Shown: positions 11,048-55,733, counted from the stretch's first letter. The stretch is 64,000 nt of DNA from an uncultured Actinomycetes bacterium (GCA_963704885.1 CAVPIB010000007.1:201975-265974); one strand, 5' to 3'. The notes: a model not told the origin generated them from the sequence alone. Program-made: numbers and translations.

Positions 11048-11066
11048 TTCCGTCTAACCTAGCTCT

Positions 11067-11681: not shown

Positions 11682-11695
11682 TCGCAGAGAGGGGG

Positions 11696-12307: not shown

Positions 12308-12323
12308 TCGGGGTGCCCTGCTT

Positions 12324-20729: not shown

Positions 20730-21836
20730 TTAGGCGGAAGGACCTGCCGGCGCCGGCGCCGCTACGTCCGCCGGGTAGGCGATGCCGGCCCGCTCGGGCC
20801 AGCCGATCGACAGCCGCTCGCCTGGAGCCCGTGGCTCCCGCAGTCGCAGTCGGCAGGATCCGATAGTGGTTGAGGTCAACACGTCGAAGTGCGAGCCGAA
20901 GAACGAACAGGTCTCCACGGAGCCCGTGAGCGCTCCTTCGCCATCGGCTCGGATCTCCAATTCCTCGGGGCGTAGAAGCACTTGCGCTCCGGCTCCGGGT
21001 CGTGCTCCGGCGTCGAGCGCTCTGAACCGTCGTCCTGCCACTTCCACCTCCACGTTGCCCTCACCGGCGGATATGACGGTCGCCGGGAAGAACGAGCCGG
21101 CACCGATGAATCGCGCGGTGAACAACGTCGCGGGCGAACGGTAGATGGTTTGCGGGTCGGCCATCTGTTCCAAGCGGCCCTGGTTCATCACGCCGACAAG
21201 CTGAGAGATGCTTAGGGCCTCGTCCTGGTCATGCGTCACGAACACGAAGGTAGTCCCGAGCTCCTGATGGATCCGGAGCAGCTCCTCTCGGAGCGCGAAC
21301 CGAACGTTGCGGTCGAGCGCGCTGAGCGGCTCGTCCAAGAGCAACACGCGAGGACGGTTGATCAACGCACGCGCGACCGCCACCCGCTGCGCCTGCCCGC
21401 CCGAGAGCTCCGACGGGTAGCGTGCGCCCAATCCCTCCAGTCCTACTAGCTGAAGCATGTCGGCCACGCGCTGCGAACGCTCCGCCGCAGATGGTCGCGA
21501 GTTCTTCGACTGAGTGGTCAAACCGAACCCGACGTTCTCGGTGATCGTCATGTGGGGGAAGAGTGCGTAGTGCTGGAACACCATGTTGAAGGGACGGCGC
21601 TCGGGCGGCCTCCGTGTGATGTCGGTCCCGTCGGTGAGGACCAGCCCACTATCCGGCGACTCCAGCCCAGCGACGATCCGCAGAAGCGTCGTCTTCCCAC
21701 ACCCGCTCGGCCCGAGCAGGCTGAAGAACGAGCCGGCCGGGATATCCAGATCGAGCGCGTGCAGCGCCACCACATCGCCGAACCGCTTCGACACCCCTTC
21801 GATCGAGATAGCGCCCTTAGGGCCGGCGCCCGTCAT
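20730..21836 (-). CDS. potA: ABC transporter ATP-binding protein, spermidine/putrescine importer PotA-like
   Basis: Walker A GPSGCGKTT, LSGGQ signature, Walker B LLLDEPLSALD, and a C-terminal TOBE-like domain. ATGA overlap with the permease gene. Confidence 0.9.
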   Translation of the reverse strand: MTGAGPKGAISIEGVSKRFGDVVALHALDLDIPAGSFFSLLGPSGCGKTTLLRIVAGLESPDSGLVLTDGTDITRRPPERRPFNMVFQHYALFPHMTITENVGFGLTTQSKNSRPSAAERSQRVADMLQLVGLEGLGARYPSELSGGQAQRVAVARALINRPRVLLLDEPLSALDRNVRFALREELLRIHQELGTTFVFVTHDQDEALSISQLVGVMNQGRLEQMADPQTIYRSPATLFTARFIGAGSFFPATVISAGEGNVEVEVAGRRFRALDAGARPGAGAQVLLRPEELEIRADGEGALTGSVETCSFFGSHFDVLTSTTIGSCRLRLREPRAPGERLSIGWPERAGIAYPADVAAPAPAGPSA

Positions 21837-22654
21837 GCCACCCTCGCGAGCGCCTCGGCTTGGGAGCGCAAAGCGGATCGGGACGACCGTCGCCGCTGAA
21901 TGGCGAACGACAACGCAACCGCCACCCATGGCACCACTAATAGGATCGTCGCGACCGCGTTGATGGACGGGTCGATCGTGCGTCGCAGGCGGGACAGAAC
22001 GAAGAGCGGCAGCGTCACCCGCGTCCCGGATGTGAAGTTGGTGATCAGCACCTCGTCGAAGGAGATCGCGAACGCGATCATCATGGCGCCCAGTATCGAA
22101 GGGCCTATCAGAGGGAGCGTGATGCGGCGAAGGACCATCGCTGGACGGGCGCCCAGATCGCGGGCCGCCTGCTCGACGGCCAGGTCGTAGTTCCTCAGTC
22201 GGGCTCCCACGATGAGGATCACGAACGGCGTCGTGACGATCACGTGCCCCGCCACGATCGTGTACATGGACGGGTCGATCGCGAAGGTCTTCAGTGCGGC
22301 GACGAGTGAGATGCCGATGAACAGAGGTGGCAGCATGATGGGCAGTCGCGACCCGCTCTCCAACCATCTGGTGGCCCGATTGATCCGCCGGGTTATCGCG
22401 AACGCGGCTGCGGTACCTACCACCCCCGCAACGACCGCCGTCGCGCTGGCCGCGGTCAAGCTTGTCTTCATGCCAGTGCGGAACTGCTGTTCGCTGAAGA
22501 TCACGCGGAACCATCTGAGCGAGATCCCCTGGGGCGGCCAACTCAGATTCGACCCGGAGTTCAGCCCGTAGAGCACCACCACGATCAGCGGGAGATAGAT
22601 GAAGACGACGAGGATCACGACGACCACCGTGAGTAGACCCGGATGGCGCTTCAT
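21833..22654 (-). CDS. potC: ABC transporter permease, PotC-like
   Basis: 6 TM helices and an EAA-like loop (AARDLGARPAMVLRRITLP). Confidence 0.9.
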   Translation of the reverse strand: MKRHPGLLTVVVVILVVFIYLPLIVVVLYGLNSGSNLSWPPQGISLRWFRVIFSEQQFRTGMKTSLTAASATAVVAGVVGTAAAFAITRRINRATRWLESGSRLPIMLPPLFIGISLVAALKTFAIDPSMYTIVAGHVIVTTPFVILIVGARLRNYDLAVEQAARDLGARPAMVLRRITLPLIGPSILGAMMIAFAISFDEVLITNFTSGTRVTLPLFVLSRLRRTIDPSINAVATILLVVPWVAVALSFAIQRRRSSRSALRSQAEALARVA

Positions 22655-23517
22655 CCGACGTGCCTGGGCAGGAGACCCGCACCGCGCATCGCGAGCCGAA
22701 GCAGGACAACCAGCCCAAGGAACAGGACGAGCATGACGAACGCCATAGCGGCTCCGAGGGGGTAGTTGAGGGCCGTGGTCAGTTGATCGGCGATCAACGT
22801 GCCGAACATAGCGCTCGAGCCGATGCCCCCGAGGAAGACAGGCGTTATGTAATCACCGGCCGAGAGGAAGAACACGAACAGGGTGGCGCCGAACATGGCG
22901 TTTCCGGAGAGGGGCAGAACGATCCGGCGGAGGGTCATCCACCGTGACGCACCTAGGTCTCGCGCCGCGGGCTCCAGCTCAGACGAGATAGAAGACAGGC
23001 TGGAGTAAAGGACCAGCGCGGTGAACGGGAGGAAGAAGTTCACCTCGGCTACGACGACCGCGACCCGGGAGAAGAGCAGTATATGGAGGGGCTTATCGGT
23101 GACGTTCAACGCCTGCAGCAAGGAGTTGAATATGCCGCTCTCGCCCGAGAGCGTGCGCCAGGAGTAGATCAATGCCAGATAGCTTCCCATCAGCGCGATC
23201 ACGATCGCGATGAGGAGGAGCCCCTTGGATCGACGGGCGCGGAACGCCAGGAAGTACGCGAGTTGGTAACCGAATACCACGGAGATGAGGGCCGTTGGGC
23301 CGGCGATCAACAGCGTGTTGAGCGCATACCGTCGGTATAGCTGCGTGGTCAGGACCCTTCGGTAGTTGTCGACCGTCGCGCCGGGCACGATCTCGAGCAG
23401 ATGAACGTGGAAGAACGAGAACGCGAACAGCATCGTGACCGGCACCAGCACGCCGAACAAGAGAAGCGCCCCCAAAGGGGTCGACAGGAGCGCAGCCAGG
23501 CGACGGGAGAGCGGCAA
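22651..23517 (-). CDS. potB: ABC transporter permease, PotB-like
   Basis: EAA loop AARDLGASRWMTLRRIVLP. Four-bp overlap with the downstream permease. Confidence 0.9.
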   Translation of the reverse strand: MPLSRRLAALLSTPLGALLLFGVLVPVTMLFAFSFFHVHLLEIVPGATVDNYRRVLTTQLYRRYALNTLLIAGPTALISVVFGYQLAYFLAFRARRSKGLLLIAIVIALMGSYLALIYSWRTLSGESGIFNSLLQALNVTDKPLHILLFSRVAVVVAEVNFFLPFTALVLYSSLSSISSELEPAARDLGASRWMTLRRIVLPLSGNAMFGATLFVFFLSAGDYITPVFLGGIGSSAMFGTLIADQLTTALNYPLGAAMAFVMLVLFLGLVVLLRLAMRGAGLLPRHVG

Positions 23518-23537
23518 GACCTAGGACGAGGGCCGGT

Positions 23538-24722
23538 TCAGGAGCCCTTGACCTCCTCCCACAACCCGATGACGTCGTCGTACGTGGCGCGGTCTCCGTC
23601 GGGCTCGTGCGGGAATCCTTGGTTGAACGTCAGAGTGTTCGACAGGTAGTTGTCGATGTCATCGTACGGATAGAGAGCAGCGGCTTCCGGAGTCAAGAGC
23701 GGGATCGCCGCGGAAACCCCCGGCCCTTGCAGGAGGCTGCTGTTCGCGTCAGCGTTCACCTCCGGATCCAACAGGTGATTGACGAAGGCGTAGGCGTTCT
23801 GAGGATTGGGTGCCGTCGGAGTGATGAACGCCGAGTCCGCCCAACCGATGGCTCCTTCCGACGGGATCACCGTCTTCGTGGGGATGCCCTCATCGGCGGT
23901 GACCGAATCCATGAAGGCCAACCCGACCACCATGTAGTCCACATCGCCGGCGATCAGCAGGGAGATGGAGTCGCCGATGGTCGGTGCGAGCGCCTTGATC
24001 TGCCCGACTAGGCTCGTCAGGTAGTCCTTGACTTCGCCGTTCAGCTGATCCGTGGTCAGCTCGTCCGGATCGATGCCCACCGCGATGGCCCCGAGCGCGA
24101 CGTTGTTCAGGGCGCTGTCGATGGTGGAGACGCGTCCCTTGTACGCGGGGTCGAGGAGGTCGTGCCAGCTCTTCGGCTCGGGCACCCGATCGGTCCGATA
24201 CGTCACGCCCGAGAAACCCCAGGTCCATGGGGACGCGTTATAGGTGCCATCGTCGTTCTTGAACGGCGCGACCTGGAAGGCGGGCATCAGTCCGGCCAGA
24301 CCCGGAACCTGATCGAGGGTCATCGGGCTGATCAGGCCCAGATCCACGTAGTCCAGGAGCACCACGTTGTCGCCATACGAGATGTCCCACTGATCACCGC
24401 CTGGACCCTTGAGGACCGTGGCCACCTCCTCGGGACCCGCGATGTACTTGACGTTCACCTCGATGTCGTTCTGCTTGAGCCACGGGGTCAGGTCGCCCGC
24501 CGTGTCGTATCCCTCCCACGTGTAGAGGTTGAGCGGTCCTCCCACCGGTGGGAGCGGGCTCGGCGACGGACTTCCCGCCGTGCCGGAGGTGGGGCTCGAC
24601 TCCGAGTCGCCGGACAAGCCGCAGGAGGCGAGGAAGGCGGCGGCGGCCGCCGTTCCGGTGACCCTCAGGAACCGCCTGCGGTCCATCAAGAATCTCAGCT
24701 CACGGTCTTGTGCCTCGCCCAT
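23538..24722 (-). CDS. potD: extracellular solute-binding protein (PotD/PotF-like polyamine-binding), Tat/lipoprotein signal
   Basis: RRRFLRVTGTAAAAAFLASCG signal (Tat-type, with a lipobox). GGAGGGGGAGAG Shine-Dalgarno before the start at 24722. Confidence 0.85.
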   Translation of the reverse strand: MGEAQDRELRFLMDRRRFLRVTGTAAAAAFLASCGLSGDSESSPTSGTAGSPSPSPLPPVGGPLNLYTWEGYDTAGDLTPWLKQNDIEVNVKYIAGPEEVATVLKGPGGDQWDISYGDNVVLLDYVDLGLISPMTLDQVPGLAGLMPAFQVAPFKNDDGTYNASPWTWGFSGVTYRTDRVPEPKSWHDLLDPAYKGRVSTIDSALNNVALGAIAVGIDPDELTTDQLNGEVKDYLTSLVGQIKALAPTIGDSISLLIAGDVDYMVVGLAFMDSVTADEGIPTKTVIPSEGAIGWADSAFITPTAPNPQNAYAFVNHLLDPEVNADANSSLLQGPGVSAAIPLLTPEAAALYPYDDIDNYLSNTLTFNQGFPHEPDGDRATYDDVIGLWEEVKGS

Positions 24723-24825
24723 CTCTCCCCCTCCACGAACTCATCACGGCCACCCTCGGTGGTCAGGTGGCATGATAACCTGCATACCCGCTGTCAAGTC
24801 AACGCCGTTCGGGCCAGGCGACCTC

Positions 24826-26226
24826 CTAAGAAGGCTCCAGGTAGCGGTCTCGCTCCCAGTCCGTCACGTGCTCACGGAAGGCCGCCTCTTCGCGGCGACC
24901 CAGGATCGAATAGGTTTCCACGAACAGCTCGCCGAACACGTCCTTGCAGAAGGCGCTCTGCTCGAAGATGTCGATCGCCGCTGCCAAGGTGCCGGGGATC
25001 CGCTCGAGCGAGTCGTCCTTGTATGCGTCGCCCTCGATCTCCGGCGGCGGCTGGAGCCCTCGGGCGATGCCATCGGCTCCGGAGGCGATGGCGCCCGCGA
25101 GGATGAGGTAAGGGTTGGCATCGGCCGAGGGCGTTCGGATCTCGAGCCGTCGCGCCTCTGGCTCGCCGGGCGGAATCCGCACAGCCGCGGTCCGGTTGTC
25201 GAGGGCCCACGACACGCGATTCGGCGCGAACGTGTAGTCCTTCAGTCGCTTGTAGGCGTTGACCGTTGGGAGGTTGATGGCGGTCGTATCGACCGTGTGC
25301 ATCAGAACGCCGGCGAGGTACGCGTGCATGACCGACTCGTCGGTCGCGAACACGTTTTCCGTGGAGCCCTTGCGACGCAGGCTGTTATGGATGTGGTGGC
25401 CACTGCCTTCCATCCCCGTGAAGGGCATCGGCATGAACGTGGCGCGCAGATCATGTCGTTCTGTGATGAGCTTGACGACGTACTTGAGGACGGCGGCGTT
25501 GTCCGCCGTCTCGATCGGCGACGCGGGCCCCACGTTGATCTCGAACTGCGCGGGCCCGCCCTCCGTCTGGCTGGACTCGATGGGGACTCCGGCCGCGAGC
25601 AGCATCGCCCGGATCTCACCGATGACGGGCTCGTATTCCGCCCCGCGCGTCATCGACCAACAGCGGTGATCGTCGAAGGCGGGACGCCAATCTCGATCGC
25701 AGAGGTAGAACTCGAGCTCGGGAGCGACCCACGCCTCGTAGCCCAGGTCCTCGAGCGACATGACCGATCGTCGAAGGATGCTCCTGGAGTCCAAGGGGTG
25801 CTCCGCGCCGCCTCGCGCAAGGACTGCGTCCATGAGACAGAAGGCGGTGCCCGCGGCCCAGGGTGCCGGACGGAGGGTGGACAGGTCCGGGAACACGTGC
25901 ATGTTCGGGAAGCCGGTGTCGGCGTTGGCGTAAGGGGTCGGAGTGATGTCGCCGAGGATGCTCCATGTGAACGCAGCGTTGGGCATGCTCATCCCGCTTT
26001 CGGCGACATTCAGGAACGCGGCCGTCGGCATCCGACGCCCGACCAAGACGCCCCACGTGTCAGGGAAGCAGCATTCGACAGTATCTATCGTCGAAAGGAA
26101 GCGTTCGGTCTCCGCCAGATCCACGCTGAGAGGCTCCTCCCTGGACGGTGGCCGGAGGATAGCACCCTGCAACGTTGCAGAAGAACCGTCCTGGCGACCC
26201 CTGATATCATCTGGTCTGCTCACCAT
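24826..26226 (-). CDS. glutamine synthetase family protein (type III / gamma-glutamylpolyamine synthetase PuuA-like)
   Basis: N-terminal beta-grasp and catalytic domain with the PAQFEINVGP, MPMPFTGMEGSGHHIHNS and NRTAAVRIP motifs. Start assigned to an internal Met (MVSRPDD); the 85 upstream codons in the track look non-coding. Confidence 0.8.
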   Translation of the reverse strand: MVSRPDDIRGRQDGSSATLQGAILRPPSREEPLSVDLAETERFLSTIDTVECCFPDTWGVLVGRRMPTAAFLNVAESGMSMPNAAFTWSILGDITPTPYANADTGFPNMHVFPDLSTLRPAPWAAGTAFCLMDAVLARGGAEHPLDSRSILRRSVMSLEDLGYEAWVAPELEFYLCDRDWRPAFDDHRCWSMTRGAEYEPVIGEIRAMLLAAGVPIESSQTEGGPAQFEINVGPASPIETADNAAVLKYVVKLITERHDLRATFMPMPFTGMEGSGHHIHNSLRRKGSTENVFATDESVMHAYLAGVLMHTVDTTAINLPTVNAYKRLKDYTFAPNRVSWALDNRTAAVRIPPGEPEARRLEIRTPSADANPYLILAGAIASGADGIARGLQPPPEIEGDAYKDDSLERIPGTLAAAIDIFEQSAFCKDVFGELFVETYSILGRREEAAFREHVTDWERDRYLEPS

Positions 26227-26250: not shown

Positions 26251-26997
26251 ATGCAGGGGAACGAGGTCTTCGCCCGCCTCGATGGCCTCACGGGGTTGGT
26301 CACGGGTGCAGGGCGAGGGATCGGGGAGGCCTGCGCGATCGCTCTGGCCGGCCACGGTGCTCAGGTGCTGCTGGCCGATCTGGACGAGAAACGCCTGGTT
26401 GAGGTGGCGGCCAAGATCGAGTCCGACGGCGGCCGCGCGACGACCTGCGTGACCGACGTTCGACAGTGGGCGAGCGTGCAAGCCATGGCCGACAGCTGCA
26501 TCGAAGCGTTCGGCGGCATCGACTTCGCGATAGCCAACGCGGGGGTGGGCAGCTACTCATCGCTCGACACGGGCGATCCAGAGCTTTGGCGCCGTGTCGT
26601 CGAGACCAACCTGCTCGGCGTGCTGCACACGGTCCGTGCCGTCTACCCGCAGATGAAGGAGCGACGAAGCGGACACATAGTCCTGATGGCTTCCATCGCC
26701 GGGCGCCAGACATGGGTGGGTGAGCCCGTCTACATCGCCACGAAGTGGGGTGTCGTGGGGCTCGGGTGGGCCCTGCGGAAGGAAGCCCTGCCGCACAAGG
26801 TGCGCGTGACGATGATCGAGCCCGGCATGGTCGACACACCGCTCCTGCACGAGACCGAGGAGGGGATGAGCGAGCTCGAGCGTTTCGCGGCGCTCGACGT
26901 GAAGGATGTCGCTCGCGCCGTGGTCTTCGCGCTTTCCCAGCCTGAGGGAGTCGCGGTGAGCGAACTGATCATCACGCCCGTCGGTCCCGAGCTCTGA
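26251..26997 (+). CDS. SDR family short-chain dehydrogenase/reductase
   Basis: TGAGRGIG Rossmann motif, NAG, and YIATKWG (YxxxK). GAGGAGCGGTGAGG Shine-Dalgarno. The 822-aa ORF in the track is read-through from upstream non-coding frame. Confidence 0.9.
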   Translation: MQGNEVFARLDGLTGLVTGAGRGIGEACAIALAGHGAQVLLADLDEKRLVEVAAKIESDGGRATTCVTDVRQWASVQAMADSCIEAFGGIDFAIANAGVGSYSSLDTGDPELWRRVVETNLLGVLHTVRAVYPQMKERRSGHIVLMASIAGRQTWVGEPVYIATKWGVVGLGWALRKEALPHKVRVTMIEPGMVDTPLLHETEEGMSELERFAALDVKDVARAVVFALSQPEGVAVSELIITPVGPEL

Positions 26998-27009: not shown

Positions 27010-28140
27010 ATGACCCGCGCCGGGAATGACACTCGACCTGTGGGTCCGAAGGTGGAGCTGGCTGGAGTCGTTGGGAGACCGATCGAGGAGGTGGCGACGC
27101 CGGCGCTCGTACTGGACCTAGCCGCCGCCCGTCGCAACATCGCCGCCATGGCCGAACGGATGGCGGCGCTCCCGGCCGGCCTGCGACCTCACATCAAGGT
27201 GCACAAATGCGCGGAGCTGGCGCGGATGCAGATCGCAGCGGGGGCTCTCGGCGTCACCGCCGCGACCGTGTCGGAGGCCGTGGCGATGGTGGATGCTGGC
27301 GTCACCGACGTGCTGGTCGCGAACCAGGTCGTATCTCCAGTATCGGTCGCCCGGCTGCTGGACGCGGCGGGCCGAGCCCGCGTGCTGGTGGCGATCGACG
27401 ACCGGCGCAACCTGGAGATGCTTGGCCTCGCCGCGATCGGGGCGGGGGTCGAGCTGGGAGTGCTGATCGAGCTCGACGTCGGACTCGGACGCGGGGGCGT
27501 TCGGTCGGTGGATGAAGTCGTGCGTCTTGCCGGGCTCGCGACCGAGACGCCAGGCGTGATCTTCGACGGACTCATGGGGTACGAAGGCCATTGTGCCAGC
27601 GAACCCGATCCGAAGATCCGGACCGAGGCGGCCACGCGAAGCATGGAGCTGCTGGCGTCCGCGGCCGATCGCTGTCGTGACGCTCGGCTCGTGGTTTCAA
27701 CCGTTTCAGCAGGAGCCACGGGGACGTTCGAGATCACGGCCAACGCCCGCGCCGTCACCGAGGTGCAAGCTGGTTCCTACGTCGTGATGGATCGCTTCCA
27801 TGAGGCGCTCGTCTCTGGGTTCGAGACCGCCCTGACCGTCATGGCCACCGTGACCGGGCGTCACGACGATCTGCTCGTGCTCGACGCCGGCCGCAAGTCG
27901 ATCGATGTCAGCCTGCGTCCGCTCCAACCCTCGGATCCGCGTGCCACGCTCGCATTCATCCATGAGGAACACGTGGGAATCCGCTACGAGGGACCGGCTC
28001 CGGGGTCCGTGGGTGATCGCGTGAGCTTCGTACCGGGATACGCTCCCACGACGGTCAACCTGTTCGGTGCCTACCACGTCGTCGAGGACGGCTACGTCGT
28101 AGACGTATGGCCGGTGCTAGCGCGACACGGGGCTCCGTGA
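27010..28140 (+). CDS. alanine racemase N-terminal domain protein (DSD1 / D-threonine aldolase-like PLP enzyme)
   Basis: PLP-Lys motif PHIKVHKC, TIM-barrel order, and a C-terminal beta domain ending HVVEDGYVVDVW. Confidence 0.85.
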   Translation: MTRAGNDTRPVGPKVELAGVVGRPIEEVATPALVLDLAAARRNIAAMAERMAALPAGLRPHIKVHKCAELARMQIAAGALGVTAATVSEAVAMVDAGVTDVLVANQVVSPVSVARLLDAAGRARVLVAIDDRRNLEMLGLAAIGAGVELGVLIELDVGLGRGGVRSVDEVVRLAGLATETPGVIFDGLMGYEGHCASEPDPKIRTEAATRSMELLASAADRCRDARLVVSTVSAGATGTFEITANARAVTEVQAGSYVVMDRFHEALVSGFETALTVMATVTGRHDDLLVLDAGRKSIDVSLRPLQPSDPRATLAFIHEEHVGIRYEGPAPGSVGDRVSFVPGYAPTTVNLFGAYHVVEDGYVVDVWPVLARHGAP

Positions 28141-29808
28141 AGGCGGGGTGGTTCTCCGCCGAGCTCGAGGGCGCCGACCTGACGCAGCTCCGATGGGGTG
28201 GACTCGAGATCGCTTCGTCGATCCAGGTGACCGTGAGAGATGAGCGGTGGGGCACGCTCCGGCCGGCGTTAGTGACCGCCGAGGTGAGCGAGGACGCCGA
28301 TCGGTTCTCGGTGAGTCTCGAGGCGACACACGGCGACGACGTCTTGGCGTGGACCGGAACCATCCACGCCTCCGCCGACGGAACACTTGGATTCGACGTG
28401 AACGCGATCGCCAAGCGTGAGTTCGTGTACCGCCGGATGGGGATCTGCGTCCAGCATCCCTGGGCGTCGCATGTTGGCGCGCGGTACGAAGCCTCCGGCG
28501 TCGGCACTGCCGCGACCGGCACCTTCCCCTCGGATATCGCGCCCCAACCTTTGGTCGACGGACACCTCGCTCCCTTCGTACCCGCGTTCAAGGAACTCTC
28601 GATCCGGTTCCCCACGGGTGTTGACGCGGGCTACGTCTTCGAAGGTGAGGACGATGGGTTCGAGCTCGAGGACCAACGCAACTGGACCGACGCCTCGTTC
28701 AAGACCTATCCGACGCCGCTGAAACGGTCGCTCCCGAGGCGGCTCCAGCCGGCGATCGGTGGACCCAGAGGTTACGGCTCACCGTCAGAGGACCCGCTCC
28801 GGGGTCGGCGGCCACCGATGGGCCGGTAACGATCGAGATCGGCTCCCCAACGGGCGGCCACATGCCGTCGATCGGCGTAACGGCACGCGCCGGACCTGTC
28901 GATCCGGGCGCGCTCCGCAGGCTGCAGCCCGCTCATCTGCGCGTAACGGTAGAACCACCTGATCGTGATCGGGTCGTGCGGCGAGCCACTTCCCTCGCGA
29001 GGGAGATCGGCGTTCCGCTGGAGCTCGTTCTCCTGTTCGATGACGAACCCGAAGGGGCGGACCTGCTCGGCAAGGCCCTCGAGGACGCCCCCCTCGCCCG
29101 GGTCCTCGCTCTACGCCGAGACGGCGTCACGACCGACGGGCGTTTCGTTGCTAGGGCGCGGCCCGATCTTCCTTCGAACGGAGCGGGGTTCTTCGGTGGC
29201 ACAGCCTCGCACTTCTCGGAGCTGAATCGCTTGAGGCCTTCGCCCGATGGGATGGACGGGGTCGCGCTGGCGATGTCTCCACAGGCGCACACGATAGATG
29301 AGCGATCGATGGTGGAAACGCTCGAGATTCAAGGGCAGATCGTGAGGCAGGTGAGCGGTTTCTCCCGTGGCCTGCCCGTTGCGGTCTCGCCGGTGACCCT
29401 GGCCGCCCGTGAACCTCCCCATGAGCAGGTTCCGATCGACCACCGCGTGGGCTCCTCGTTCGGCGCTGCTTGGACCGCGGGCTCGGTGGCGAACCTGCGG
29501 CCGCTGGCGTCTCGTCCGTGACGCTGCACGAGGCCGTCGATCGCACGTACTTGGGCTCTGCTCAACTCAGCCGCGTCTTCAGCGAGCTCGCAGCGAGGCG
29601 CGGTTCCACGCTGCACGAGGTCTCATCGTCCGAGCCACGACGGGCCCTGGCGATCGCCGCAACCGGCGCACCTGTAATGCTCGTCAACCTGACGCCGGAG
29701 TCGTGCGAGGTCAGGCTCCGAGGCGTCGTGTCGGGGAGCGGACCCTCGCGCCCTACGAGGTGGCGGCGCTCGACCTGTCCCCGTGATAGTGGGGATTCAT
29801 CGACATGA
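28137..29808 (+). pseudogene. hypothetical gene spread over three successive -1 frames (28107-28829, 28862-29521, 29470-29808): probably a single frameshifted gene of about 550 aa
   Basis: Three same-strand ORFs with no intergenic space and consistent codon bias; the frame shifts 0 to 2 to 1. No family could be assigned. Confidence 0.35.
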
Positions 29809-30477
29809 CGTGCTCGAGCATCCGCAGGCGGGCAAGCTCGCCGTCCCCGGAGGCGATCGCGTCGCGGATGCGTGTGTGCTGGTCCAGTTCCCAGTGTGCG
29901 TATCCCTCGGCGGTCTGATAGAGCTGCGGGCCAAGCTCGAAGGCCAACCTGAAGAACGGGCGGACGATGCTCGATAGGACCCGGTTCTTCGCGGCATCGG
30001 CAACCAGCAGGTGGAACTGCGAGGCCTCGACTATGGGCCGCTTCAACTCATCCGAGCGAGCGCGGTGTGGGTCCAGCACGTCCTGCATGGCGGTCGGGTC
30101 CGGATTCGTCCGGCGATCCGCAGCCAGGCGTGACAGCTCGGCCTCGATGAATCGCCGAGCCTCGAGGATCTCCGGTGTGATCACCTTCGGCTCGGCGTTC
30201 GTCTCGTCTTTCGAGATCGGCGGATGCTCCGCCACGAACACGCCCTGGCCGTGCCGGATCTCGATGACGCCGATCATGGCCAGTCCGTTCAACGCTTCGC
30301 GGACCGTCGATCGGACCGCACCCCAGTCGTTGCGTGAGCTCGCGTTCGGCCGGCAGGCGAGTGCCCGGAGAGAGGTCTTTGACGGCGTCTAGGATCTGCT
30401 GCGCGACCGTCTCGGCCAGCTTCTTGCGTGGAGCCTGGTTTGATCTGTAAGGCGGGGATCTCGTAGTTCACGGCCAT
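29753..30477 (-). pseudogene. GntR family (FadR/FCD C-terminal domain) transcriptional regulator, HTH disrupted by at least two frameshifts
   Basis: The N-terminus MAVNYEIP, then APRKKLAETVAQQILDAVKDLSPGTRLPAERELTQRLG, then AVRSTVREALNGLAMIGVIEIRHGQGVFV are in three different frames; one shift falls at a GGGG run. The FCD domain (29753-30292) is in a single frame. Confidence 0.6.
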
Positions 30478-30479
30478 CG

Positions 30480-30999
30480 AGTCTAGCCCGTTGCCCTGCT
30501 CGGTCCCAGGACGCGCCCGCTCGATGAACTCGGTCTGGGCGCCATCGGGATCGGACACGTAGGCGCCCTTCCCTCCCGCGTAGGCGCCAGGTCCATGTCG
30601 ATAGGCTCCGCGGTGCGCGAACGCACGCCGGCAGCCCGCAGCTTGGCCAAGGTGATCGTCAGATCGTCCACCAGGAGCGAGAGGTGTGACCGTCCCGGCT
30701 CGTTCTCTGCACCCGTCGGAAGGGAAGTCCCGACGGGACGCCGGTACTGCATCAGGTCGACGGAGGTGCCCCCAGGGATCTTCGGCTCAGCCCATTCGAT
30801 CTTGGTTCGGTCCAAAGCGGCCGACCTGTCGATCTGGTCCCACTCGATGGCGCCGCGCCCAACCACTTCCAGGCCCAGGAGATAGCCAGAAGGTGAGCGA
30901 ACGCTCGATGTCGCTCACCGTGGCGCCGAAGTGATCGACGCCCGTGACCCCACCCGCCATCGACCTGCCTCCTGACCCGTGACGCCGGTGACGTCTCAA
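30480..30999 (-). pseudogene. VOC (glyoxalase/bleomycin-resistance/dioxygenase) family gene, frameshifted
   Basis: N-terminal MAGGVTGVDHFGATVSDIERSLTFW, middle RSHLSLLVDDLTITLAKLRAAGV and C-terminal SDPDGAQTEFIE lie in three frames. There is no stop codon before the GntR coding start. Confidence 0.5.
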
Positions 31000-31022
31000 C
31001 AGAGCGGATGACCTGCTGAACT

Positions 31023-31998
31023 GTGAACGATGCTACCATGCGCCACATCGGTAAGACCGAGGCGCCGTCGCGCGCGGCAGCCTTCGAGCTTCTGGTGCTG
31101 ATCCGCCGCTTCGAAGAGGCGGCGAGACGCCTTTCTCTTTCCGCTTCGCTTCCGGGGGCTGTGCATCTCGCGACGGGGCGTGAGGCGGTGAGCGTTGGGG
31201 TCGGCTCGGGGATCGAACCTACGGACTGGGTAGCTTGTGCCTATCGGGGTCACGGACACGCTCTGACAGCCGGAGTGACTCCGCGCGCCCTCATGGCGGA
31301 GCTACTCGGTCGAGAGACCGGCATCTACGGTGGCCGTGCGGGATCGATGAACATCGTGGATCGCGAGCACCGATTGCTCGGTTCGATCGGGATGATCGGC
31401 GGAAGCATCGCTGGCGCAACGGGGGCCGGACTGTCGCTTCGCGGCGCGGGCGCGGCCGCGATCGCGATCTTCGGTGACGGGGCGGTGGATCAGGCGTACT
31501 TCCTCGAATGCCTCAATCTCAGCAGCGGTGCTGTCCCTCCCGGTTCTGTTCGTGTGCGAGAACGATCTGTACAGCGAGTGCACCCGCACCGATGTCGTCA
31601 CCGGAGGCTCCGTCGCCGATCGCGCCAGGGCCATCGAAGTCGTCGCCGAGGTGGTGGACGGCATGGACGTGCGAGAAGTCGAAGCCGGGTAGCGAGCTCG
31701 CGCTCGAGGAGGTTCGGCGGGGTACCGGGCCCCGGTTCGTGGAGGCGAGACCTATCGGTTCGTGCCGCGCAGCCGAGCGATCCCGTTGCCTGCCAGCCTC
31801 CGACGAGGTCGAGCGATGGAAGGCGCGCGATCAGATCGATCAGGAGCGCGTCCGCCTGCTCGCCGAGGGCGCGGATGCAGGCGAGCTGGAATTGGCTGGC
31901 GCGATCGATCGATGAGCAGGTCAAGGCCGCGATCGCGGCCGCGTTCGAGGATCCGATCCCGGAGTGGGGTAACTCCTGGACGGAGAGTTCGTCTGAGC
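31023..31998 (+). pseudogene. 2-oxoacid (pyruvate/acetoin/branched-chain) dehydrogenase E1 component alpha subunit, TPP-dependent, with at least 3 frameshifts
   Basis: YRGHGHALTAGV and GDGAVDQAYFLECLNLS in one frame, LPVLFVCENDLYSE..VREVEAG in a second, and GTGPRFVEARP / ETYRF / DEVERWKARDQIDQ switching between frames again. Confidence 0.75.
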
Positions 31999-32007
31999 GC
32001 CGGATCG

Positions 32008-32955
32008 ATGTGGATCAGGGATGCCCTTCACGCCGCCCTCGCGGACGAGTTGTCCGCGGACGCGTCCGTAATCTTGTTGCGCGAAGACATCGGCATGGCC
32101 GGCGGCGTCTTCGCCGTCACGAGCGGTCTCATAGAGCGGTTCGGCCCGGAGCGGGTGATCGATGCGCCGATCTCCGAGCTGGCTCTGACCGGGGCAGGGA
32201 ACGGCGCGCCGTGACCGGGTCGCGTCCGGTGGTGGAGATCATGTTCGGCGACTTCGTGGCGCTGGCGATGCGGTACACTCCTGGAACAGGCCGCGAAGTA
32301 TGCGTTCGTCTCGAACGGGCAGGGCGGCGTACCGATAGTTGTCCGATGCGCCGTCGGAGGCGGGGCGCGCATCGAGGAGATGAACTCGCAGGTCCCTGCG
32401 TCGTGGTTCATGGGGCGTTCCAGGCCTGAAGATCATAGCTTCGAGCGATGCGGCGTCTGCCTACGTTCTGTTGCGGGCGTCGATCCGCGATGACAACTAG
32501 GTCGTCTTCATGGAGCGCGAGATGCTCTATTCGGAGAAGGGTTGGAGTTGGAACGACGAGCCGAATGCCGATCGAGCGCGCCGCGATCGATCGCGACGGG
32601 ACGGACGTCACCATCGTCACAGCCATGCGATGGACACTTGATGCCGTCGAGGCGGCCGGGCGGCTGAGCGCTCGAGAACGGGATCGAGGCGGCCGTGAAT
32701 CGAGTCTCCGATTCCTTCGTCCTCTCGACATCGGGACGATCATGTCCTCGCTGTCGATCGCCGAACCGCGCGATGGTCGTGGAAGAGGGGCCGAAGACCG
32801 GAGGATCGACGAGTGAGGTCGTCGCTTCGATCGACGAGACCGCCTCGGGGTGAGCTGGAGGACCTCTGGCGCCTGACGTCGCCTGACCTGCCGACACCAT
32901 TCAGCGCGCCGTTGGAGGACGACTTCCTGCCGCGGGTTGACGCGGTCGTCGGATC
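32008..32955 (+). pseudogene. 2-oxoacid dehydrogenase E1 component beta subunit, with at least 3 frameshifts
   Basis: MWIRDALHAALADELSADASVILLREDIGMAGGVFAVTSGLIERFGPERVIDAPISE, then RPVVEIMFGDF, QAAKYAFVSNGQGGVPIVVRCAVGGGA, PIERAAIDRDGTDVTIVTAM, MVVEEGPKTGGSTSEVVASIDE and RVDAVVGSIL in alternating frames. Confidence 0.75.
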
Positions 32956-32977
32956 GATCCTGAGCACGCCTGACCGG

Positions 32978-33960
32978 TCAGCGGCGAGCCGCGATCGCCT
33001 CTTCGGCGGCCGCCGACGCGGCGCCGGCCGTCAGGCCGTGCGTTTCGGCGACGTAGTCGTTGGTGCGAACGAGCAGAACTCGTCTCGCACGCCCACGCGG
33101 CCGCACGGGCGCCCCGACCCCTTCGCGCGCGAGCACCTCCGACACGCAAGAGAACGATCCGCCGATGGTCGAGTGGATCTCGGCCGTCACCAGCGCGCCC
33201 GTCTCGTGCGCGAGCGCGAGCAGCGCTGCGCCGTCGAACGGCTTGATGGTGGACATCTTCGACGCGGCGGCCGATACGCCCTGGTCTGCAAGCGCCGTCG
33301 CGGCATCGAGCGAGCGACGCACCATCACGCCGCTGGTGACGATACCCACGTCGGTCCCCTCGTGCAGGATCTGCCCCTCACCGATCCATGAACGTGTGGC
33401 TTCCCTCTCCACGTATGGCGTCTCGCGGCCGAGCGGCTCGCGCAGGTGCACCGGACCCTCGAAGTAAACGAGCGCGTGCGTTGCCTCGGCCGTCTCGGCG
33501 TTGTCGCACGGGTCGATCACGGTCATGTTCGGCAGCGCTCGCATGTGCGCCAGGTCGTAGAATTCCTGGTGCGTCGGGCCGAACGTCGGGTGGATTTCCG
33601 GAAGCGCGGCCACTATCTCACGTTCGCACGGTTCAGCGCACATTGGATGGCTATGAAGTCGAGAGCTCGGCGCGTGGCGAACACGGCGAACGTGGTGGCG
33701 ACCGGTGTGAACCCTGCCTTCCACAGACCCACCGCCACGCTGATCAGGTTCTCCTCGGCCATGCCGACGTTGATGAACCGATCCGGGAACGCCTGGGCGA
33801 ACGGGTGTAGTCCCGTGACGCCGGCGACGTCGGCGGAGAGCGTGACCACGTCTGGCCGGCGTTCGCCGATCTCCAGGATCGCGTGACCGAACGGGCCGGA
33901 CTTCGCCAAGACGACCGGGTCGACCGGTGGATGGCCCAGTGCCGGCAGCGTGTCGCTCAC
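32978..33960 (-). pseudogene. tktB: split transketolase C-terminal subunit (TktB-like), frameshifted
   Basis: The N-terminal part FPDRFINVGMAEENLISVAVGLWKAGFTPVATTFAVFATRRALDFI (frame of 33613-34014) and the C-terminal part PTHQEFYDLAHMRALPNMTVIDPCD...TIKPFD (frame of 32978-34060) are in different frames. GTGA overlap with the tktA stop. Confidence 0.7.
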
Positions 33961-34800
33961 GTGGGTAGACTTCCAGCTGGCGCGTGACCGCGTCCCACTC
34001 GTCGTCGTCCACACGGACGAAGTGATTGCGTTCGCGCTCCATGATCAAGCGGAACGCCACATCCGAGCGTGGTGCGACAGACCACGGCCTTCGGTCGACC
34101 GGTCACCTCACGCGCCCGATCGAACGCGCCCAGCAGCGCCGCGATGTCGTTGCCGTCGACCTCGTCCACCCACCAGCCGAACGCGCGCCACTTCTCAGCG
34201 TGCGGCTCGATCTCCAGGACCAGGTCGCCATCGGCCTGAACGCGATTGACGTCGAATTCGTTCACCAGGTTGTCAAGGCCTTGCGCCGCGGCGAACATCG
34301 CCGACTCCCAGGTGGAGCCCTCCTGGACCTCTCCGTCGGACATGAAGTTGAAGACGCGCGCCGGGTGGCCCTTCAGGCGGAGCCCGATCGCCAGGCCCGC
34401 CGCCACACCAAGGCCGTGCGCGAGTGAGCCGCCCGTCATTTCGATTGAACGGAGGGTGCCCCTCGTACGTGGACATGATGAGCGTGGTGCCGTCGGCACC
34501 GTAGGTGTCAAGATCCTCGCCCCCCAAGTGGCCTGCCTCCGCGAGTGCGGCCCACAGTCCGATGGAGTAGTGGCCCGCCGAGTAGATCAGGCGATCGATA
34601 TCGGGAGAGCGGTCGACCGGGTCGTAGCGCATCTCAGATAGGAGTAGGACGGCGAGGATGTCGGCCACGTCCAGTCCCTGACCCACGTATCCCTCACCTT
34701 TGCCGGCGGACATCCGCACGACGTTCTTGCGTATCTGCTTTGCTCGGGTACGGAGCTCGTCTATGGACGCGCCAGTTGATCTTCGCTTCGGTTGCAGATG
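33957..34800 (-). pseudogene. tktA: split transketolase N-terminal subunit (TktA-like, TPP-binding), with at least 2 frameshifts
   Basis: KQIRKNVVRMSAGKGEGYVGQGLDVADILAVLL...SAGHYSIGLWAALAE in one frame and GSLAHGLGVAAGLAIG...MSDGEVQEGSTWE...AFGWWVDEVDGNDI in another. No clean start codon in any frame. Confidence 0.65.
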
Positions 34801-34903: not shown

Positions 34904-35785
34904 GTGATCGTGCACCTGGTGGACGGGACGTACGAGCTGTTCCGCTACCACTTCGGGGTGCCGTCACACGTGACCGACGACGGCCGCGAGGTCGCCGCCA
35001 CGCGAGGGGTGCTCGGCTCCATGCTCTCCATGCTCGAGGGCGGTGCTACCCACGTGGGTATCGCCACCGATCACGTCATCGAGTCGTTCCGCAACGCGTT
35101 GCTCGAGAGCTACAAGACGGGCGAGGGCGTCGATCCCGTGCTCCGCTCGCAGTTCGAGCTGCTCGAAGACACGCTGAGGGCAGTCGGGTTCTGCGTGTGG
35201 CCGATGGAGGACTACGAGGCCGACGACGCACTCGGTTCGGCCGCGGCAGTGGCCGCTGCCGACATAAGGGTCGAGCGGGTGATCATCTGCACGCCCGACA
35301 AGGATCTGGGCCAGTGCGTCAGCGCCGACGGGCGGGTCGTGCAGTTCGACCGGCGGAAGGAGTCGCTGACCGACTTCGCCGGCGTCGTCGCGAAGTTCGG
35401 AGTGGAGCCTGAGAGCATCCCGGACTATCTGGCTCTGGTCGGCGACACGGCCGATGGGATCCCCGGCGTGCCCGGCTGGGGGGCGAAGACCTCGGCCACG
35501 GTGCTGGCCCGCTACCGGCATCTGGAAGACATCCCGCTACAGGCGGGCCTCTGGGACATCTCCGTGCGGGGGAGGGCGAACCTGCTGCGAACGCTGGCCG
35601 ATCGGTTCGAGGACGCGTTCCTCTACCGGCGGCTGGCGACGATCGACACGAACGCGCCGACGATCAGTGACGTCGAGGAGCTCGAGTGGACGGGTCCGGC
35701 CGAGGGCTTCGAGGAGTCGCTGAGGGCGATCGACGCCGATGGGTCCATCGCGCGCATCATGAGGCTCACCGACACGCGCGGTTGA
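34904..35785 (+). CDS. 5'-3' exonuclease (Pol I-type 5' nuclease / flap endonuclease domain protein)
   Basis: MIVHLVDGTYELFRYHFG..., EADDALGS, and an H3TH region GDTADGIPGVPGWGAKTSATVL. Intact 293 aa. Confidence 0.85.
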   Translation: MIVHLVDGTYELFRYHFGVPSHVTDDGREVAATRGVLGSMLSMLEGGATHVGIATDHVIESFRNALLESYKTGEGVDPVLRSQFELLEDTLRAVGFCVWPMEDYEADDALGSAAAVAAADIRVERVIICTPDKDLGQCVSADGRVVQFDRRKESLTDFAGVVAKFGVEPESIPDYLALVGDTADGIPGVPGWGAKTSATVLARYRHLEDIPLQAGLWDISVRGRANLLRTLADRFEDAFLYRRLATIDTNAPTISDVEELEWTGPAEGFEESLRAIDADGSIARIMRLTDTRG

Positions 35786-35873: not shown

Positions 35874-36986
35874 ATGCCGACACGCCACACGCCATACCAC
35901 CAGCGGTTCATGGAGCTCGGGGCTGAGATGGGGGACCGGATCGGGTTCGACGCGGCGGTCGTGTTCTCATCGACCGAGAAGGAGCACCTGGCCACGCGCG
36001 AAGGCGTGGGGCTGTACGACGTCTACTACCAGGGGCCCATCGACATCAAAGGGCCGGACGCGCAGGCGCTCCTGGACCATGTGCTGGCGCGTGACGTGCC
36101 GCGGCGGTTGGCCACCGACGGTCAGGTGCTCTACTCCTCGGTCTGTAGCGCGGAGGGCGGGATGATCGACGACCTCACCGCTTACCGACTGGGACCTGAG
36201 CACTACTGGCTGATCGCCACGCCGGCCCGCGCCGAGATCGTCGGACTCACGTGACCGAGCACGCACGCGATCGCCGCGCCTTCGTGACCAACTGCATCTC
36301 GGGCACTGCGTATCTGTCCGTGCAGGGCCCGGGTTCGCGCGAGCTGCTCGCGCCGCTCGCGGAGGCGGATCTGTCGACCGACCGGCTCCCCTACTTCAGG
36401 TGTGTTCGAACCGTGGTCGCCGACGTGCCCACCCTCGTGTCGCGCACGGGCTACTCGGGCGAGCTGGGGTACGAGCTCTACTACCCGCGCGACTACGCGC
36501 TCCACATGTGGGACACGCTCACGAACGCCGGCGCCACGCCGTGCGGGCTGGGGGCGCTGCGCAGCGTTCGCATGGAGAAGAAGTACCCGCTCTACGGCCT
36601 GGACGTTAGCGAGACCACGTCGCCGCTGGAGGCGGGTCTGGGATGGGCGGTCGACCTGGATGGGTCGGACTTCATGGGACGCGACGCGCTGATGCGTCAG
36701 CGCGATGAGGGGATCGCACGGCTCCTCACGGGGATCGAGTTCCCCGACCTGTCGTTCGTCCCGTCCGCTGGGGACGCCGTGGCGACCGCCGACGGCGAGC
36801 CGCTCGGCACGCTCACGTCCGCGGACCGCGGCTGGTTCCTGGGCAAGGCGCTGGCGATGGGCTATCTGCCGTTCGACCTCGCCCGGTTCCACCGTCACGG
36901 TGACCTCGGCCGACGGCACCCGGGGCGAGGGCGTGACTTCGGATCGACCGTTCTACGACCCGGACGGAACGCGCGTCCGCGCTTAG
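35874..36986 (+). pseudogene. gcvT: glycine cleavage system T protein / aminomethyltransferase family gene split over three frames (35874-36254, 36251-about 36900, 36705-36986)
   Basis: YDVYYQGPIDIKGPDA (N), LSVQGPGSRELL..VSRTGYSGELGYELYYP..LRSVRMEKKYPLYGLD..EAGLGW (middle) and MGYLPFDLA..VTVTSADGTRGEGVTSDRPFYDPDGTRVRA (C) in frames shifted by 1 nt each. Confidence 0.7.
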
Positions 36987-36997
36987 GGTGCCTGGCG

Positions 36998-37688
36998 ATG
37001 AGCGCATGGAATGTTCTCGGCAGGCGCGCCCTGGTGACGGGCGGCAACCGTGGCATCGGCCTGGAGGTCGTGCGGCTCTTGGGTCCGCATTGGCTTGGAG
37101 GTCTTCCTAGGCTCGCGCGATCCGGACGCGGGGGCGACCGCCGCCTCGGCGCTCGGATCGCCGGGTGTCACACCGGTTCGCATCGACGTAGCCGACCCCT
37201 CGAGCGTGATGGCCGCTCACGATTCACTGGCGCCGGCCGGTATCGACGTGCTGGTCAACAACGCCGCGGTCAACCCACGAGGTCGGGTGACGCCGGAGGA
37301 GGCCGACCGGGCTTGGCAGGTGAACACGCTGGGGTGTTGGCGCGTGACACAGGCGTTCCTGACGCCGATGCGTGAGCACGGCTGGGGCCGGATCGTGAAC
37401 GTCTCTTCCGAGGTGGCCGCGAACGCGCATGAGCAGCGGGGTGGGGGCATCTACGCCGCGACGAAGATCGCTCTGAACGTCATGACTCGCGCGCTCGCAG
37501 AAGATCTAGAAGGGACCGGGATCTTGGTGAACGCGATCAGTCCGGGGTGGTGCCGATCGGACATGGGTGGGGCGAGTGCACCGCGATCGGTCGAGCAGGG
37601 TGCTGCGAGCATCGTCTGGGGTGTGACGCTCCTCGACGACGGTCCGTCCGGAGGCTACTTCCAGGACGGCGAACCGTTCGCCTGGTAG
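36998..37688 (+). pseudogene. SDR family oxidoreductase with a frameshift near 37080
   Basis: MSAWNVLGRRALVTGGNRGIGLEVVRLL in one frame; VFLGSRDPDAG...VLVNNAAVN...YAATKIALN...PGW in the next. The near-duplicate segments IGLEVV and IGLEVF flank the shift. Confidence 0.65.
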
Positions 37689-48241: not shown

Positions 48242-48257
48242 GACCGCAGACTATCCT

Positions 48258-49406
48258 TTGGCCATGTCGACGTCCGTGCTCGTCCTCGGTGCCGGTTTCG
48301 GCGGACTCGAGCTGTCCACCCGGCTCTCGGAAGGGCTCGGCGACGAGGTCGAGATCACGTTGATCGATCGTGCGGACGCGTTCGTGTTCGGCTTCTCGAA
48401 GTTGGACCTGATGTTCGGCCGACGGATGCCAGAAGCCGTCCGCCTGAGCTACAGCGACATCACGACGCCCCAGGTCAGGTTCCGACAGGAGACCATCAGC
48501 TCGATCGACGCCGATGCACGGCGCGTGGTGACAGATCTCGACACCTACGAGGCCGACATCCTGGTGGTGGCTCTCGGCGCCGACTACGACCTCGCGGCCA
48601 CGCCCGGGCTGGCAGAGGCAGGCAACGAGTTCTACTCGGTACCTGGCGCCGAGATCCTGCGCGGTGTGCTCCCGTCGTTCCGTGAGGGCACGGCGATCGT
48701 GGGCGTGTGCGGAGCCCCGTTCAAATGCCCCCCGGCGCCCAGCGAGGCGGCGCTCCTCCTGGACGAGTTCCTGCGGGAGCGCGGCATCCGCGACGCTGTC
48801 CGGATCCAGGTCGTGATCCCTTTCGGCTCGCCGATCCCGCCGTCGCGCGCCACCTCGGAGGCGATCGTGGCTGTGTTCGCAGAACGAGATATCGAGTTCG
48901 TGCCCGATCGTCTGGTCGTTGCGCTCGACCCGAACACGAAGGAAGCCGTGCTGGACGACGGCAGACGCCTGCCTTACGACCTGTTCCTCGGCATCCCGGT
49001 GCACCGAGCGCCGGGGGTGGTCGTGGACTCGGGTCTCACGGAGAACGGCTGGATCCCCGTGGACCCGTCCACGCTCGCCACACGGTTCCCGGACGTCTAC
49101 GCCGTGGGTGACGTCACCAGCGTCGGCACCCCCAAGGCCGGGGTGTTCGCCGAAGGCGCGGCGCGAGTCGTGGCCGACCGACTGATCGCTCGGATCCGCG
49201 GGGCCGGCGAGGCTCCCGGCTACGACGGCACGGGCTCCTGCTATGTCGAGTTCGGAGGCAAAGAGGTCGCGCGCGTCGACGTCGACTTCTTCTCCACGCC
49301 GGGACACCCGACCGGAACGTTCGTGGCGCCGTCTGCGGAGATGACCGCCGAGAAGGCCGAGTTCGGATCCAGCCGGCTCGCTCGCTGGTTCGGCGGCCGG
49401 CGCTGA
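48258..49406 (+). CDS. FAD-dependent pyridine nucleotide-disulfide oxidoreductase, sulfide:quinone oxidoreductase (SQR)-like
   Basis: GAGFGGLE FAD motif, FKCPPAPSEAA (SQR-type motif), and a second Rossmann motif YAVGDV. Confidence 0.8.
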   Translation: MAMSTSVLVLGAGFGGLELSTRLSEGLGDEVEITLIDRADAFVFGFSKLDLMFGRRMPEAVRLSYSDITTPQVRFRQETISSIDADARRVVTDLDTYEADILVVALGADYDLAATPGLAEAGNEFYSVPGAEILRGVLPSFREGTAIVGVCGAPFKCPPAPSEAALLLDEFLRERGIRDAVRIQVVIPFGSPIPPSRATSEAIVAVFAERDIEFVPDRLVVALDPNTKEAVLDDGRRLPYDLFLGIPVHRAPGVVVDSGLTENGWIPVDPSTLATRFPDVYAVGDVTSVGTPKAGVFAEGAARVVADRLIARIRGAGEAPGYDGTGSCYVEFGGKEVARVDVDFFSTPGHPTGTFVAPSAEMTAEKAEFGSSRLARWFGGRR

Positions 49407-53449: not shown

Positions 53450-53468
53450 CGGCCTCCCCCTCGCAGTT

Positions 53469-55654: not shown

Positions 55655-55733
55655 GCCCTGTGCGAGAGAGACCTTATGCCCAGACGGTCGTTCCCGCTAG
55701 AGGGCTGGAGATCTGGATCCATACTGCTGACCG

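Follow-up and report, generated by a model that had tools for sequence, protein, structure and literature searches.

A 64,000-nucleotide stretch of the genome of an uncultured Actinomycetes bacterium (GCA_963704885.1 CAVPIB010000007.1:201975-265974; called the window here, with coordinates counted from its first nucleotide) carries a nine-gene catabolic cluster with its own GntR regulator, in which seven of the nine genes are disabled by about 30 frameshifts and one stop codon relative to intact orthologs. In our judgment the cluster is probably being lost in this Acidimicrobiales lineage through relaxed selection, by the ordinary rotting of a dispensable pathway. Syntenic clusters in relatives identify the genes as one conserved, GntR-associated unit, and its loss in its entirety, which had been proposed in an initial annotation of this DNA, remains the best reading of the damage. 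The G+C content of the window is 67%, and the best relatives of the 5'-3' exonuclease encoded next to the cluster are among uncultured Acidimicrobiales/Acidimicrobiia, the closest of them (L001) being 78% identical in amino acid sequence.

Lesions in the cluster

Lesions were mapped against intact orthologs with a frameshift-aware protein-to-DNA aligner, which places indels accurately to a few bases only. Among the references were a 318-kb contig that holds the full neighborhood of the cluster (L086) and a metagenome contig that holds part of it (L081). The nine genes, which include enzymes dependent on pyridoxal phosphate (PLP) or thiamine diphosphate (ThDP), are listed below together with the exonuclease gene that marks the boundary outside the cluster.

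26251..26997, plus strand: SDR oxidoreductase, first gene of the cluster, intact; 248 of 248 codons aligned with L086 at 83% identity, no frameshift or stop, adh_short domain complete
27010..28140, plus strand: PLP enzyme of the D-serine-dehydratase / 3-hydroxy-D-aspartate-aldolase type, intact; 78% identity to L086 over 362 codons, no frameshift
28137..29783, plus strand: D-apionate-lactonase (ApnL) homolog, pseudogene; frameshifts at 28749 (-1), 29495 (-1) and 29737 (+2)
29753..30477, minus strand: GntR/FCD regulator, pseudogene; frameshifts at 30441 (+1) and 30314 (+1), the latter in the helix-turn-helix domain
30484..30960, minus strand: VOC/glyoxalase-fold protein, pseudogene; frameshifts at 30882 (-2) and 30590 (-1), Pfam Glyoxalase/VOC match at 30486-30999 (minus strand)
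31038..31996, plus strand: ThDP-dependent E1 alpha, pseudogene; 7-8 frameshifts, E1_dh split into 31023-31520 and 31474-31692 (plus strand)
31993..32973, plus strand: E1 beta, pseudogene; 9 frameshifts, in-frame TAG at 32498-32500, start codon GTG changed to CTG
32978..33960, minus strand: transketolase C-terminal half (TktC; Pyr and C domains), pseudogene; Pfam Transket_pyr and Transketolase_C at 32981-34060 (minus strand)
33957..34800, minus strand: transketolase N-terminal half (TktN; ThDP-binding), pseudogene; Transketolase_N split into 33960-34511 and 34276-34719 (minus strand)
34904..35785, plus strand: 5'-3' exonuclease, an intact core gene amid the broken run; 5_3_exonuc_N and 5_3_exonuc complete

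Between 29753 and 34800 six genes (GntR, VOC, E1 alpha, E1 beta, TktC and TktN) together have about 28 frameshifts as well as a single in-frame stop, and across this block single Pfam domains are divided between reading frames. This is the interval to which the initial annotation had confined both the unit and its inactivation. Pfam bears out the identities that it gave to all six genes, and each of them is indeed out of frame relative to intact orthologs. Its count of one to three frameshifts per gene holds for GntR (2), VOC (2) and TktN (3) but is too low for E1 alpha (7-8), E1 beta (9) and TktC (5). The interval was also drawn too small, since the lactonase gene with its three frameshifts lies upstream in the same unit and the intact SDR and PLP genes belong to the cluster as well. 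Nor does the damage stop at its borders: a GcvT-like gene, a second SDR gene and two SulP genes (51-56 kb) are also broken.

The lactonase pseudogene has no Pfam match of its own over 28137-29783 and owes its identification to the alignment with L086, in which it is colinear over three frames with a 550-aa lactonase (66% identity). The GntR pseudogene is 87% identical to the GntR protein of L086 and 79% identical to that of L081, with a Pfam FCD/GntR match at 29756-30292 on the minus strand, and the VOC pseudogene is 76% identical across three frames to the 159-aa VOC protein of L086; the intact ortholog bears glyoxalase domains. E1 alpha, 71% identical to the frame-corrected L086 protein, is shifted at 31521, 31681, 31698, 31745, 31777 and 31800, by a 4-nt duplication near 31905, and once more before its stop codon at 31994-31996; Asn residues of its ThDP motif are changed to Asp. 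The duplication, in the part encoding the C terminus (about 31900-31915), is a tandem copy of ATCG (ATCGAT to ATCGATCGAT) that shifts the frame, and L086 has a separate insertion of 1 nt that lies about 15 nt downstream of the corresponding position. An apparent in-frame stop at 31913 was rejected as a nonsense mutation, being a product of this duplication and of an out-of-frame reference. E1 beta, 74% identical to the frame-corrected L086 protein and with a Pfam Transket_pyr match from 31762 on the plus strand, is shifted at 32206, 32271, 32413, 32564, 32673, 32698, 32757, 32845 and 32960, and a codon-usage hidden Markov model (HMM) run over the whole window drops the reading frame over this gene. 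Compared with P0123 and P0122, TktC has frameshifts at 33618, 33406, 33386, 33097 and 33066 together with 24 single-nucleotide amino acid changes. TktN, 83% identical to the 279-aa L086 protein, is shifted at 34446 (+1), at 34049 (+1) and by +2 near 33985, the last of these abolishing the stop codon.

That these are not random hits, as had been suspected, is clear from their distribution: about 30 of the approximately 36 frameshifts in the window fall within 6.6 kb (Poisson p ~2e-16), and ~44 kb of other coding sequence, including open reading frames (ORFs) of 4.35, 2.9 and 2.1 kb, is free of them. Frameshift density is also unequal among genes (G = 32.5, p = 6e-4), with 8.3 per kb in E1 alpha/beta against 3.0 per kb in the rest of the broken cluster genes (p = 0.005). 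No frameshift is present in the exonuclease, SDR and PLP genes; at the rate of the broken genes, such a result would have a probability of 0.03 in the exonuclease gene and of 6e-4 in the SDR and PLP genes taken together. The exonuclease gene, which had been described as intact, does have complete domains and aligns with L001 without a frameshift.

The HMM marks many changes of frame on the same strand; outside the block nearly all of them mark the normal ends of genes whose Pfam domains are complete, and complete genes at the flagged boundaries include those for a 959-aa P-type ATPase, a 1451-aa cyclase/AAA/TPR protein and a 698-aa MMPL protein. A model of frameshift errors throughout the window was dropped, since the other same-strand frame changes are almost all true gene ends. 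An Rfam scan of the window returned no RNA families, and hence no riboswitch or recoding element to account for the frame changes, and no homopolymer run of at least 5 bases that could have caused an indel was present in any local context examined.

The cluster in relatives

The gene order of the cluster is SDR, PLP enzyme, ApnL-like lactonase, GntR, VOC, an optional E1 alpha/beta pair and the split transketolase, which makes nine genes. L086 holds the full neighborhood, running through TktN, TktC, E1 beta, E1 alpha, VOC, GntR, lactonase, PLP enzyme and SDR, with a GS-like gene and then an ABC transporter beyond the SDR, and the window reproduces the L086 cluster order exactly. L081 has GntR and VOC on the minus strand and E1 alpha and E1 beta on the plus strand, in the same layout as the window and intact. 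After frame correction, the window genes align end to end with the orthologs of relatives at 66-87% identity. The cluster was found beside the exonuclease gene at none of the 80 exonuclease loci of relatives.

E1 alpha and E1 beta, the most damaged pair in the window, are broken or missing in relatives too. The Joint Genome Institute (JGI) contig of P0129 has the cluster without the pair, and in L086 the pair (11014-12946) contains 2-3 frameshifts (after the residues IDRDV, at 11815 and perhaps at 11028), with none in the rest of the 21-kb locus. Because the pair is missing from the one contig and frameshifted in the other, it is, on the sequences compared, an optional and repeatedly decaying passenger of the cluster. 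For the same reason, sequencing noise is unlikely to have singled out these two genes in the window. In the gene calls for L086, E1 alpha is joined to the start of E1 beta as a 430-aa product.

Signs of a probable relaxation of selection

With L081 as the outgroup, a relative-rate test over 765 codons assigned 109 changes at the first two codon positions to the window and 47 to L086 (2.3-fold); at the third position the two numbers were 127 and 117. Since positions 1 and 2 are raised and position 3 is nearly equal, the excess of change in the window is confined to the selected positions. Near-invariant columns tell the same way: TktC is changed at 12 of its 107 columns with a conservation of 95% or more (11%), and E1 alpha at 8 of 68 near-invariant columns (12%), where the medians for homologs are 0.9% and 1.5%, respectively. 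In the exonuclease, which served as a control, 1 of 52 conserved columns is changed (2%). The damaged patch of TktC holds about 5 substitutions per indel (24 amino acid changes against 5 frameshifts). In nanopore and PacBio noise, indels equal or outnumber substitutions, and a ~5:1 surplus of substitutions therefore does not fit long-read noise. Apparently truncated remnants elsewhere in the window suggest real gene decay in this genome. These are the C-terminal third of an Na_sulph_symp gene (8348-8905, minus strand; profile positions 289-471 of 472), an AlaDH N-domain without its NAD domain (10343-10861, plus strand) and a PIN domain reduced to its final 30 residues (62943-63095, minus strand).

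Under relaxed selection, E1 alpha/beta would have been lost first, since it is the worst damaged and relatives, too, either lack it or show it in decay. Next would have come the lactonase, the regulator, VOC and both transketolase halves, and the SDR and PLP enzymes would either still be under selection or be the last to be hit. The accessory neighbors, namely the GcvT-like gene, the second SDR gene and the two SulP transporter genes, would be decaying too, and selection would have preserved the housekeeping exonuclease amid the broken genes. Classic examples of pseudogenized accessory operons come from Mycobacterium leprae and host-restricted Salmonella. The cluster resembles them in its many frameshifts in adjoining pathway genes, the sparing of housekeeping neighbors, the non-synonymous excess and the presence of intact orthologs in relatives. 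It differs from them in that its indels are of 1-2 nt without a deletion bias, in being very recent, given that the TktC lesions are missing from a relative that is ~99.5% identical, and in its metagenome-assembled source.

Consensus error as an alternative

Several results weigh against decay. A near-identical contig (33,455 nt; P0122, P0319, P0368 and P0370), which was compared at the protein level, matches the window at 194 of 195 residues of the PLP enzyme, about 102 of 103 residues of the SDR and 38 of 38 residues of TktC (residues 75-112). It has the family consensus at all 24 of the deviant TktC positions and none of the five TktC frameshifts, and since it is without them, the TktC lesions must be specific to this assembly or strain. 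It also carries indels of its own in the SDR and PLP genes, both of which are intact in the window. Split genes are seen in several related ENA assemblies whose contigs are named in the style of Flye, which makes long-read consensus error a realistic background. All 33 indels are of 1-2 nt, apart from one of 4 nt, insertions are at least as common as deletions, and there are no larger deletions, a profile that is atypical of old bacterial pseudogenes. Within TktC, 0 of 37 conserved columns are changed before residue 112 and 12 of 62 after it (p = 0.003). Pairwise dN/dS against L086 is not visibly elevated at 0.08-0.24, values that are uninformative because dS is about 1 (saturated).

These results raise the alternative that the genes are intact in the organism and that the indels, perhaps with some of the substitutions, are long-read metagenome errors in poorly supported segments, such as strain-variable accessory stretches with thin read coverage or poor polishing. 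We consider this unlikely. It draws on much of the evidence just described. The lack of any of the window's TktC lesions in the near-identical contig, and the different SDR and PLP indels found there, would make the two sequences resemble two noisy consensuses of one population. Protein near-identity nevertheless allows 5-10% synonymous divergence, so the TktC patch, in which about 5% of the non-synonymous sites are changed, can still be neutral decay since the strains split. The Flye-style contig names of relatives with split genes and the uniformly small indels, with no large deletion among them, also suit consensus error, but the ~44 kb of other coding sequence without a frameshift indicates that the quality of the consensus is generally high, and the indels lie outside homopolymers of at least 5 bases. 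A switch from clean to dirty sequence inside a single gene, at TktC residue 112, is likewise what poorly supported segments could produce; the dirty patches are, however, rich in substitutions (about 5 per indel), and the excess of change is found at codon positions 1 and 2 only. Differences in coverage would also leave an accessory gene such as the GcvT-like one (absent in L001) broken beside a clean core exonuclease gene. Against this, lesion density tracks gene identity, with E1 alpha/beta the worst affected and also being lost in relatives, and the cluster and its flanks are syntenic with L086, with no obvious strain-variable island.

The near-identical contig shows odd in-frame differences (MDYQLFHE versus MDRFHE and ALPGRKV versus ALPHKV). 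In contigs of relatives from the ENA series ERZ250395xx (L082, L083 and L084), many genes are called as short pieces of one domain, CT_C_D, E1 beta and FAD_binding_3 among them, which suggests that this family of assemblies is prone to frequent indel errors.

Patchiness and strand asymmetry

The unevenness of the damage could also point to a localized, strand-biased mutation episode (for instance a mutator phase or error-prone repair synthesis), or to a recombination mosaic of old pseudogene and intact alleles, in place of gradual decay; we regard this as very unlikely. All 24 substitutions of TktC lie past residue 112, with the radical ones confined to residues 112-259, and the density of window-specific change varies from 2% to 23% per 150 nt. 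Such patchiness would suit an episode or a mosaic, but it was tested rigorously in one gene only, and some of the high-density bins hold misaligned out-of-frame codons. Polarized window-specific changes on the plus strand (29850-33620) affect 13.7% of A, 9.9% of C, 6.5% of G and 4.6% of T sites, so that A is changed about three times as often as T (p = 3e-4) and C about 1.5 times as often as G, in the same direction in genes of both orientations. The spectrum of the TktC patch, read on the minus strand, which is that of the gene, is skewed as well (T>C 12, G>T 4, C>N 0). A three-fold asymmetry is nevertheless within the range of replication-strand bias, its sign is the one that such a bias predicts from the local skews (GC positive, AT negative), and no mechanism-specific motif surrounds the mutated sites. 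The N terminus of TktC and all of TktN (33618-34767) have frameshifts and hardly any radical substitutions.

A more specific form of this idea is a kataegis-like mutation shower in this uncultured actinobacterium, with A->G and C->A/T changes on the plus strand plus 1-nt indels in short patches of the accessory cluster. It would have struck in the time since two strains with ~99.5% protein identity diverged, and we find it highly improbable as an account of the damage.

Other broken and neighboring loci

Beyond the exonuclease gene, two further genes are disrupted.

35874..36988, plus strand: GcvT-like aminomethyltransferase, pseudogene; frameshifts at 36249 (-1) and 36872
36998..37688, plus strand: second SDR, broken; one frameshift at 37088 (+1), after the Rossmann GxxxGxG motif

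In the GcvT-like gene the GCV_T profile is broken between frames at positions 114/120 and GCV_T_C is truncated. This gene is not at the syntenic position in L001, where the exonuclease and SDR genes are only ~460 nt apart, and is therefore an accessory insertion in the lineage of the window. The second SDR is 70% identical to the L001 SDR over two frames, and its adh_short match begins at profile position 26 in the second frame. Further away, two tandem genes for SulP-STAS-cNMP-binding transporters (51251-55675, minus strand) are both split across frames, with shifts near 52790, 54767 and 53815; Pfam matches and ORF structure put the count at no fewer than three frameshifts, and a count based on a 34%-identical reference was set aside as unreliable.

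Divergent from the cluster, 20733-26181 on the minus strand holds an intact GS-like (Gln-synt_C) gene, a solute-binding protein gene, two permease genes and a TOBE_2 ATPase gene. No fewer than three of these (the GS-like gene, the binding protein gene and a permease gene) also adjoin the cluster in L086. This operon may be the uptake system of the cluster, or it may be an unrelated operon of the gamma-glutamylation/polyamine type. A PhdYeFM antitoxin and PIN toxin pair at 59021-59658 (minus strand) is apparently intact.

Relation of the cluster to known pathways

The initial annotation had taken the unit for an acetoin or 2-oxoacid degradation module, a label that its gene content does not sustain: the E1 pair is optional and never stands beside E2 or E3 genes, and its neighbors are a lactonase, a PLP enzyme and an SDR. 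With the E1 of acetoin (AcoABCL), pyruvate and 2-oxoacid dehydrogenases the pair shares a heteromeric, ThDP-dependent organization into alpha and beta subunits encoded by overlapping genes, and the E1_dh and Transket_pyr/Transketolase_C domains of the two pseudogenes are homologous to dehydrogenase E1 subunits. Close homologs of E1 alpha carry the JGI label acetoin:DCPIP oxidoreductase subunit alpha, and its best NCBIfam model, TIGR03182 (pyruvate dehydrogenase E1 alpha), scores 248 bits against a cut-off of 394. The pair differs from such dehydrogenases in being embedded in a sugar-lactone cluster and dispensable there, as the P0129 contig illustrates. Domain scans and tblastn uphold the earlier statement that the window has no E2 or E3 gene. 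Neither Biotin_lipoyl nor 2-oxoacid_dh was detected in the scanned coding segments, which make up most of the window, and tblastn with both queries gave spurious matches only. As for E3, the window encodes a single Pyr_redox_2 protein (48249-49388, 380 aa), which is of the FCSD-like kind and 15 kb distant. In the cluster-bearing contigs L081 and L086, no E2 or E3 gene stands beside E1 alpha/beta; fragments of Biotin_lipoyl and 2-oxoacid_dh occur in L082 and L083, both of which are without the cluster.

The lactonase and the split transketolase point in another direction. D-Apiose and D-apionate clusters contain an ApnL lactonase and an AptA/AptB split transketolase (Carter et al. 2018, Nat Chem Biol 14:696; cited in PMC12994016 and PMC13001218). 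The present cluster is like them in having an ApnL-family lactonase, overlapping genes for a split transketolase, an SDR and a sugar-type regulator, and differs in adding a PLP enzyme like D-serine dehydratase, a VOC protein and, in some genomes, E1 alpha/beta. The lactonase ortholog of L086 has PF25837/PF25838 and a single NCBIfam match, to NF049900 (ApnL), at 169 bits against an equivalog cut-off of 750, which makes it an ApnL family homolog below the equivalog level. The other cluster enzymes likewise fall under their NCBIfam cut-offs, among them the PLP ortholog of L086 with its BhcC-like match; the PLP enzyme of the window has complete Ala_racemase_N and D-ser_dehydrat domains. TktN and TktC are 36% and 33% identical to AptA and AptB of E. 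coli SE15, no closer than generic split transketolases are. A pathway kinase (AplK/OiaK; FGGY), ApnO and a RuBisCO-like gene are absent from the window and from L086, and AplK/OiaK, ApnO and a RuBisCO-like gene are absent from the P0129 contig as well. Given the scores below cut-off, the 33-36% identity to AptA and AptB and the lack of a kinase, ApnO or RuBisCO-like gene, the cluster is, as judged by homology, of an uncharacterized sugar-lactone/sugar-acid type that is related to the apiose/apionate systems without being a member of them.

In relatives with an intact cluster, the products probably feed a sugar lactone or a branched sugar acid into central metabolism. Ring opening of the lactone would fall to the lactonase and rearrangement of the acid to the oxidoreductase, the PLP enzyme and the VOC enzyme, and the ThDP enzymes would carry out the cleavage or transfer of a two-carbon unit. 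In the absence of the substrate, the divergent operons would be kept silent by GntR.

Implications

The event is ordinary in kind, and the cluster in which it occurs is an interesting and uncharacterized one. The pathway should not be scored as present in this organism when the metagenome-assembled genome is annotated, and the lesions should be used as evidence of genome reduction only after confirmation at the level of reads. If real, they provide a clean natural case of the stepwise loss of a regulated catabolic cluster in an uncultured member of the Acidimicrobiales, in which an optional ThDP-dependent E1 pair goes first, the remainder follows, and an embedded housekeeping gene is kept. The conserved cluster itself, with its ApnL-like lactonase, split transketolase, VOC, PLP and SDR enzymes, may represent a new pathway for a branched sugar or a sugar acid.

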